Positions 26,208 to 26,280 of a DNA stretch of 41,592 bases are shown piece by piece; positions within the stretch are counted from its first letter, which is position 1; each line of letters opens with the position of its first letter. The stretch comes from Anaerolineales bacterium (GTDB lineage: Bacteria; Chloroflexota; Anaerolineae; Anaerolineales; UBA11858): the NCBI GenBank assembly GCA_021161345.1, contig JAGHAU010000044.1:1-41592 (forward strand), given 5' to 3'. Under the pieces are notes generated by a model. That model saw nothing but the letters and a program-made list of their open reading frames with translations, ran no database searches and was not told the DNA's origin. A program made the position numbers and the translations under genes.

Positions 26208-26252
26208 TTGACACGCTGATGAAGTGTCTTATAATTCAGTTATTGAATTATA
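26208..26252 (+). promoter_or_regulatory. Promoter-operator module A
   Basis: TTGACA (26208-26213), 16-nt spacer, TATAAT (26230-26235). The palindrome TATAATTCA-N5-TGAATTATA (26230-26252) overlaps the -10. The same 24-nt pattern occurs at 35634-35657. Confidence 0.55.
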
Positions 26253-26280
26253 GAATGATTTGTAAATGACTATGCTGCGG

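Follow-up and report, generated by a model that had tools for sequence, protein, structure and literature searches.

This locus raises the question of what is served by a promoter of perfect consensus that lies in a 111-nt gap between two convergent genes and points into the opposite strand of one of them. The window (the whole stretch of DNA that was analysed, 41.6 kb long) carries in this gap, between the end of a plus-strand GT-C-like gene and the end of a minus-strand methyltransferase-like (MT) gene, the hexamers TTGACA and TATAAT with a 16-nt spacer, overlapped at the -10 by a perfect 9-5-9 palindrome, TATAATTCA-GTTAT-TGAATTATA. We refer to the promoter (P1) and the palindrome together as the module, to this copy as site 2, and to its twin before a regulator gene as copy 1 (site 1); the coordinates are collected in Table 1. 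Direct reading of the sequence agrees with what the first-pass annotation had said of the position and letters of the two elements in the convergent gap, of their being a second copy of the promoter-operator of the regulator gene, and of their direction, which is antisense into the MT-like gene with nothing co-oriented before wzm. It had also called the site orphaned and had proposed three functions for it: antisense RNA or interference acting on MT, a long-leader promoter for the export operon, or a relic of a displaced regulator gene. The answer that we lean towards is that P1 is a repressor-gated promoter of the wzm-wzt export unit, the transcript of which would necessarily overlap MT antisense.

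Table 1. Positions of the features discussed in the text (window coordinates, or locus-specific coordinates where a locus is named)
Feature	Position	Strand	Remark
GT-C-like (PMT_2) gene, 668 aa	24163..26169	+	ends 38 nt before the P1 -35
P1 -35 hexamer, TTGACA	26208..26213	+	direct reading; outside the palindrome
P1 -10 hexamer, TATAAT	26230..26235	+	doubles as the outer stretch of the left operator arm; unchanged in every related copy
Operator, 9-5-9 palindrome	26230..26252	.	spans -10 to about +10; putative regulator-binding site
Predicted P1 transcription start	26242..26245	+	in the palindrome loop; predicted from -10 spacing and sigma-70 geometry
MT-like gene, 297 aa	26281..27174	-	would be fully overlapped by any P1 transcript
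P_MT, CTGGTAAAAT, extended -10 TGnTAAAAT	27242..27251	-	67 nt upstream of the MT start codon; putative promoter
P2, candidate wzm-proximal promoter, TTGATG-N17-TATGAT	27308..27336	+	9/12 match in the window
wzm	27382..28224	+	first co-oriented gene after P1
wzt	28265..29560	+	after wzm
Module copy 1, TTGACC-N16-TATAAT plus TATAATTCA-GTGAC-TGAATTATA	35613..35657	+	23-mer at 35635-35657
MarR-like winged-helix regulator, 153 aa	35678..36139	+	presumed operator-binding repressor
Extended site-2 copies of relatives	L002:2587-2639, L028:5192-5238, L058:6150-6190, L076:3562-3608, L110:1896-1934		
Extended site-2 copies, further loci	L135, L136, L138-L141, L144, L146, L147		

At P1 both hexamers match the consensus in full (12/12) across the 16-nt spacer, as is characteristic of a sigma-70-type promoter, and there is no other 12/12 match within 23400-28400. 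With up to one mismatch allowed, TTGACA-N16-TATAAT occurs in the 41.6-kb window only at the two module copies (0.23 expected), and the operator 23-mer with up to three mismatches is found over the whole window only at 26230 and 35635 (0 expected from 100 shuffles), so that copy 1 is the sole twin of site 2. No further operator-like sites with up to four mismatches exist elsewhere in the window, including the vicinity of wzm. The minus strand at site 2 presents the mirrored TATAAT, but its -35 matches at 2/6 positions only, in line with the earlier remark that the opposite strand offers no equally good promoter; a bidirectional promoter at site 2 was rejected since the minus strand lacks a conserved -35. 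Between the GT-C-like gene and the -35 of P1 no terminator was found.

Copy 1 sits 20 nt upstream of the ATG of the regulator gene. The regulator matches HTH_24 in Pfam (4e-13), followed by MarR_2 and MarR (about 1e-6), and scores 68.7 bits against TIGR04176, 'MarR family EPS-associated regulator', which is under the cut-off of 88. The best Foldseek matches of its predicted structure are MarR proteins (TM about 0.45-0.55), and the model places a winged helix at the extreme N-terminus, then a 38-residue helix and a small alpha/beta domain, which is an atypical domain order. Its relatives number 6,843 at E <=0.001, the 119 best of these being all at least 79% identical to it, and the few that bear a source name among the matches listed are labelled Chloroflexota/Chloroflexi. 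Literature searches on TIGR04176 and on regulators of the MarR type or of wzm in Anaerolineae returned nothing relevant.

The palindrome and this regulator are linked across genomes. The exact TATAATTCA-N5-TGAATTATA was scanned in one genome per species, and the matches listed, to which all counts given here apply, come from many Anaerolineales, Anaerolineaceae and Chloroflexota metagenome-assembled genomes, plus scattered others. At least about 60 distinct sites of the Anaerolineae type have TTGAC(A/C/G/T) 15-18 nt (mostly 16) upstream, on one strand only, and none of the 73 exact palindromes listed from other taxa has a -35. In at least about 40 distinct Anaerolineae loci the palindrome immediately precedes either the regulator gene or a gmd-like gene that is followed by the regulator, and the regulators at those loci are 49-100% identical to that of the window. 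The palindrome thus covers the regulator's own promoter and recurs at a second promoter (26230-26252), which is the pattern of a MarR-type operator. This co-occurrence suggests that the operator is bound by the regulator and would be the footprint of an autoregulated repressor covering the -10 and the start site. Exact 9-5-9 palindromes were also recorded in Rhizobium, Sinorhizobium/Ensifer and Phyllobacterium (L024, L034, L042, L073-L075, L082, L092); these Rhizobiaceae/Phyllobacteriaceae palindromes are without a -35 at 15-18 nt and may be an unrelated conserved site.

The description of site 2 as orphaned does not survive comparison with other loci. An alignment of MT homologues was used to search metagenomes, and the result was merged with the operator genome scan. 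In at least 17 distinct loci, where MT is 43-91% identical to that of the window, a complete promoter occupies the same place and orientation: the module lies 23-84 nt past the MT stop codon, its -35 is in all 17 cases on the strand aimed into MT and on toward wzm, and -35, spacing, -10 and palindrome are the same across them. The nearest relative, L133 (MT 91%, GT-C 97% and wzm 95% identical), has the same layout, with the hexamers and arms unchanged relative to the window and the substitutions confined to the spacer, loop and flanks. Across 15 loci with a type-A MT conservation reaches at least 90% only in cTTGACA and tTATAATTCA...TGAATTATA, and it is lower in the spacer and flanks. These loci were found by the exact palindrome or by the MT query, and ascertainment accounts in part for the conservation of the core; it does not account for that of the -35, which constitutes independent evidence because this hexamer lies outside the palindrome that served as search bait. 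In L110 and L147 GT-C has switched sides: the module is followed by MT (opposite strand), then by GT-C and wzm, and the module-MT pair is kept; L144 has the same module-MT unit. Near MT homologues of other, mostly high-GC, taxa no operator was found. Two types of MT locus can be told apart: type A has TTGACA-N16, and type B has TTGACT-N18, the -35 of which is adjoined by a canonical terminator of its own. Each type of module is accompanied by its own type of MT, the two behaving as one cassette of which A and B are the allelic types.

What lies between P1 and wzm was analysed on both strands. In a co-directional cluster of about 24 kb (17084-40257) no real gene other than MT is on the minus strand. 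No plus-strand ORF of 60 aa or more exists between site 2 and wzm, as had been noticed at the outset, the longest being 47 and 40 aa; a hidden co-oriented small gene after the module was rejected, no ORF being conserved in position or length, and so was a known RNA family in the leader, the Rfam gathering scan of the whole window having given only a tRNA. Within 26253-27381 there is no terminator-like site on the plus strand, and in 12 of 15 loci, the window included, no terminator-like hairpin is found on the promoter strand from the module to the next co-oriented gene. An opposite-strand gene is thus flanked by co-oriented genes with P1 aimed across it, and, as regards intrinsic-type hairpins, no terminator precedes the distal co-oriented genes, which is the layout of an excludon or noncontiguous operon.

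Two more promoters may operate in this interval. CTGGTAAAAT is exact in 13 of 13 loci of the clade in which MT is 59-91% identical, 32-153 nt upstream of the MT start, within unconserved flanks, and it is probably the extended -10 promoter of MT itself, facing P1; its strict conservation over 10-12 nt could alternatively be that of a binding site. The candidate P2 has homologues of the form GATTGACG-N17/18-TATGAT in L133, L134, L146, L058 and the MT-less L002, and wzm therefore need not depend on P1. P1 and P_MT face each other across about 1 kb that holds the whole of MT, and MT together with P_MT lies between P1 and P2, which are in tandem.

The most informative layouts for the role of P1 are those in which MT is missing or placed elsewhere. 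Where MT is missing (L002/L003, L028 and L123), the GT-C-like gene is followed by the second module and then, 106-132 nt further on, by wzm. Distant Anaerolineae (regulator about 49-58% identical) have a single module, which precedes regulator, epimerase, wzm and wzt with short intergenic gaps between them, and in L142/L143 the module is followed by a 272-aa ORF, GT-C and wzm, with MT divergent and upstream. The common denominator of these layouts appears to be that the module heads the wzm-wzt export unit. The lineage of the window has an expanded cluster, in which the regulator-gmd block and the wzm-wzt block each have a module copy. The MT-less and distant layouts make a long-leader promoter for the export operon the best supported of the three functions first proposed. 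The leaders of loci with and without MT have no detectable similarity, and an attempt to locate the insertion point of MT through leader homology failed for this reason.

From the sequence and orientation of the elements and the conservation of promoter and layout we infer the following course of events, in which binding, the initiation point, the extent of the transcript and its effect on MT have the standing of predictions. The MarR-like repressor, encoded 9.4 kb downstream, would gate the sigma-70-type P1: the palindrome spans both the -10 and the start site, and a bound dimer would therefore block RNA polymerase. With the repressor off, the perfect-consensus P1 would fire. Since MT with P_MT lies between P1 and wzm on the other strand, the transcript, starting near 26243, would run antisense for about 1 kb over the whole of MT, head-on to P_MT; it would meet no recognisable terminator, pass P2 and enter wzm-wzt. 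Derepression would increase transcription of the export operon and decrease that of MT via polymerase collision and/or sense-antisense RNA pairing. The antisense RNA or interference first proposed as a function in its own right is retained here as a consequence of the long-leader promoter, its effect on MT itself being a prediction. The untranslated antisense leader of 1.1 kb is a typical Rho target and could be shortened.

If it were shortened, for example by Rho, so as to end in or just after MT, P1 would be a dedicated antisense promoter that silences MT, and wzm-wzt would be transcribed from P2. We regard this as the foremost of the rival explanations, albeit an unlikely one. It has in its favour that P2 is conserved upstream of wzm in the clade of the window and that the module and MT types travel as a cassette, of which a relic in L076 retains the module and the 3' end of MT; there is also a precedent in the ubiG-mccBA operon of Clostridium acetobutylicum, at whose 3' end a regulated promoter is reported to fire antisense (PMC2566862). 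The module exists, however, without MT, directly upstream of wzm or of a regulator-wzm operon, which makes the export operon its general and ancestral target; nor is there a conserved terminator on the promoter strand.

The opposite simplification, in which P1 is merely the distal of two tandem wzm promoters and MT landed between them and was tolerated, with no selected effect on MT, we hold to be somewhat less probable still. P1 and P2 do stand in tandem in the MT-less L002, the leader of L142/L143 does not contain MT, and in the window the GC content of MT has no compositional anomaly, on which ground a recent foreign insertion of MT was rejected. Against mere tolerance stands the persistence of the module followed by an opposite-strand MT in 17 distinct loci, even when GT-C moves (L110, L147), and the state of the promoters themselves: P1 at MT loci is nearly always a perfect TTGACA, and P_MT, which faces it, is strictly conserved.

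The copies of site 2 on the wzm side of many relatives have an additional property. Their 9-bp arms are lengthened by 8-15 complementary bp of locus-specific sequence (Table 1), and in an alignment of 23 sequences 12 of the 21 pairs have changed on both sides. Doubly changed cells number 59 vs 27 in shuffles, none of 500 shuffles reaching the observed value, and the covariation score is 0.272 vs 0.06-0.17 with the partners slid. The extended hairpins fold with -20 to -32 kcal/mol, have flanking A-/U-tracts and are flagged as terminators on both strands; among the site-1 copies only 3 of 28 have an extension of at least 5 bp. Such extended site-2 copies may be composite elements combining a bidirectional terminator, a promoter and an operator. 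In these relatives the start of P1 would lie in the hairpin loop, and upstream read-through would be stopped while P1 transcripts would escape. For the copy in the window the folding energy is between -6.8 kcal/mol (minus strand) and -9.4 kcal/mol (plus strand), and a U-tract is missing; neither this copy nor that of L133 has a hairpin extension or a separate terminator; a hairpin or terminator role for the window copy was rejected owing to the weak fold and the lack of a U-tract.

Another idea is that the main role of the regulator-bound operator is that of a roadblock, in which bound protein stands in for a terminator where the convergent GT-C-like and MT genes meet. Relatives embed the site in a strong bidirectional terminator-like hairpin or have a terminator preceding it, and the window copy, with its hairpin of about -7 to -9 kcal/mol, has neither. 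A roadblock needs neither a -35 nor the exact N16 spacing, though, and both are conserved; it is moreover compatible with promoter function. We consider it improbable.

A genuine relic of the module is available for comparison. L076 has an intact module and, 440 nt upstream of it, a truncated cassette (3073-3340). In the latter a terminator, the hexamers TTTACT-N18-TATTAT and an operator with a single mismatch (3134-3156) are accompanied by what is left of a minus-strand type-B MT, its last 41 codons. This appears to be what a decayed copy looks like, and the window copy, perfect and conserved, does not resemble it. The suggestion that site 2 is itself a non-functional remnant, left by a regulator gene since displaced or by a recombination junction, has in its favour the missing co-oriented gene immediately downstream and the 14-mer TTAAYCCTGATTTT shared with copy 1 about 40 nt upstream of the -35. 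It is very improbable, given a 12/12 promoter and a perfect palindrome conserved across 43-91% MT identity, their contrast with the degraded TTTACT / TATTAT and mismatched operator of L076, and the comparison of orthologous loci, in which no relative has a regulator gene following the site.

The nature of the MT-like protein bears on what an antisense effect might mean. Its family comprises 153 unnamed proteins; it has no match in Pfam (E <=10), NCBIfam or the PDB sequences, and an exact look-up found no record of it. Its AlphaFold model (pLDDT 90) gave SAM methyltransferases as all of the top 50 Foldseek matches (E about 1e-5 to 1e-6, TM to target 0.45-0.54), and with these modest TM scores the fold resembles that of a COMT-type class I SAM O-methyltransferase. 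Invariant in the alignment are E128-S-G-V and D191 ... D214-D215-N216, the latter of which we take to resemble the metal site of cation-dependent O-methyltransferases. The label 'TylF-like methyltransferase' given to it at first can thus be kept as far as the methyltransferase fold is concerned, and not for TylF, as neither this nor any other methyltransferase sequence family was matched. The proteins may be regarded as a candidate new methyltransferase family tied to ABC-transporter glycan clusters.

The Wzt proteins of these loci may vary along with MT. In the type-B MT loci L006 and L152 the C-terminal (carbohydrate-binding-type) domain has no detectable similarity to that of the window, and the N-terminal ATPase domain of type-B loci is about 70% identical to its counterpart in the window. 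Most type-A loci, and with them the MT-less L028 and L123, have a C-terminal domain 82-95% identical to that of the window; the values are lower for L134 and L138, both type A (53-56%), and for L002, which has no MT (62%). The Wzt_C type and the MT type may co-vary, which hints that MT makes a terminal cap, a suggestion that the MT-less loci weaken. A more ambitious form of our preferred reading would have the module, MT, P_MT and wzm-wzt make up a conserved repressor-gated convergent switch, in which export is induced and the cap-type methyltransferase silenced by antisense; this we put forward as a tentative proposal that is more likely to be wrong than right.

Several known systems have elements of the mechanism proposed here. 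The excludon of the long 5'-UTR type, for which the mogR/fli locus of Listeria is the paradigm (Sesto et al. 2013, as reviewed in PMC7154746), resembles it in that the mRNA from a promoter runs antisense across an opposite-strand neighbour of related function before it reaches its own genes, with mutually exclusive expression expected. The present case differs in being deduced from conserved sequence architecture alone, in that its interfering promoter bears an operator shared with the autoregulated repressor of the cluster, and in that a second, proximal promoter may also serve wzm. With the noncontiguous operon menE-menC-MW1733-ytkD-MW1731 of S. aureus (PMC7154746, PMC11034616) it has in common a single opposite-strand gene in a long co-directional set and no terminator on the operon strand, with the consequence that the interposed gene would be covered in full by the operon transcript; the differences are that the promoter in the window is immediately before the interposed gene and does not head the upstream genes, and that the locus is known as a sequence from an uncultured Anaerolineales bacterium. 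In C. acetobutylicum ubiG-mccBA (PMC2566862), as well as where convergent promoters interfere under the control of a repressor (PMC5001618), a gene's own promoter is faced by a controlled one at the 3' end of the gene, and the state of the regulator sets the interference. Here the control would be exerted by a putative DNA-binding repressor at the -10 and start, not by a riboswitch, and the antisense transcript would have coding genes downstream.

The autoregulation of MarR proteins, including those of TIGR04176, provides the other half of the comparison, with a palindrome over the -10 and start of the regulator gene and a second copy before targets in a polysaccharide cluster. The regulator of the window has the winged helix, the Pfam HTH_24/MarR matches and MarR proteins as its best fold matches; it differs in the extreme N-terminal position of the winged helix, followed by the 38-residue helix and the small alpha/beta domain, and in scoring below the TIGR04176 cut-off. 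Autoregulated repressors with a second in-cluster operator and antisense overlap are both already established, and no expectation is overturned by finding them here.

The S. aureus atlas (PMC11034616) states that noncontiguous operons are not computationally predictable. If the mechanism is true, this locus would be a counter-example, where a regulator-tagged promoter that is aimed into a convergent gene and strictly conserved in many lineages flags a candidate without a transcriptome. In a phylum with almost no genetics, the comparison gives strong support to a functional convergent layout in an uncultured lineage, a widely conserved polysaccharide regulator of Anaerolineae gains a two-site regulon together with an exact operator, and a link is suggested between glycan modification, through the MT-like gene, and export. 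Should the switch be real, terminal modification or chain length of the glycan would be coupled to export in an ABC-transporter pathway, and a phylogenetically conserved noncontiguous operon of Chloroflexota would have been recognised from its sequence; in many relatives the switch would be built into a composite hairpin serving as terminator, promoter and operator at once.

Some minor observations may be added. In L145 (2584-2606) the operator has the variant form CATAATTCA-N5-TGAATTATG, in which the outermost position is altered symmetrically and the palindrome stays intact. In L022 (3098-3160), L036, L037 and L039, where the regulator is about 50-58% identical, an ATG overlaps the last base of the operator (…TGAATTATAtgg…); this ATG may be a putative regulator start, in which case the regulator mRNA would be near-leaderless. 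The consensus of P2 is (GA)TTGA(C/T)G-N17/18-TATGAT, and its -10 region (GGAATATGAT) is loosely like an operator half-site. The 14-mer TTAAYCCTGATTTT lies at 26166-26179 and 35573-35586, 42 and 40 nt upstream of the respective -35 (13/14 identical); 8 of 2838 background windows score as well, the site-2 instance overlaps the GT-C stop codon, the motif was not seen at site 2 of other lineages, and its sharing is possibly a partial duplication or chance. The tRNA gene, the sole match at the Rfam gathering level in the window, is at 5870-5943 on the minus strand. The cluster at 17084-40257 comprises ugd, epimerases, the GT-C-like gene, wzm/wzt, a formyltransferase, a DegT aminotransferase, GT4/GT2 glycosyltransferases, rml-like genes and gmd, and in the relatives L002, L006 and L010 it continues into sulfotransferase, TauE and sulfate-activation genes, which suggests that the product of the polysaccharide cluster is a sulfated glycan.
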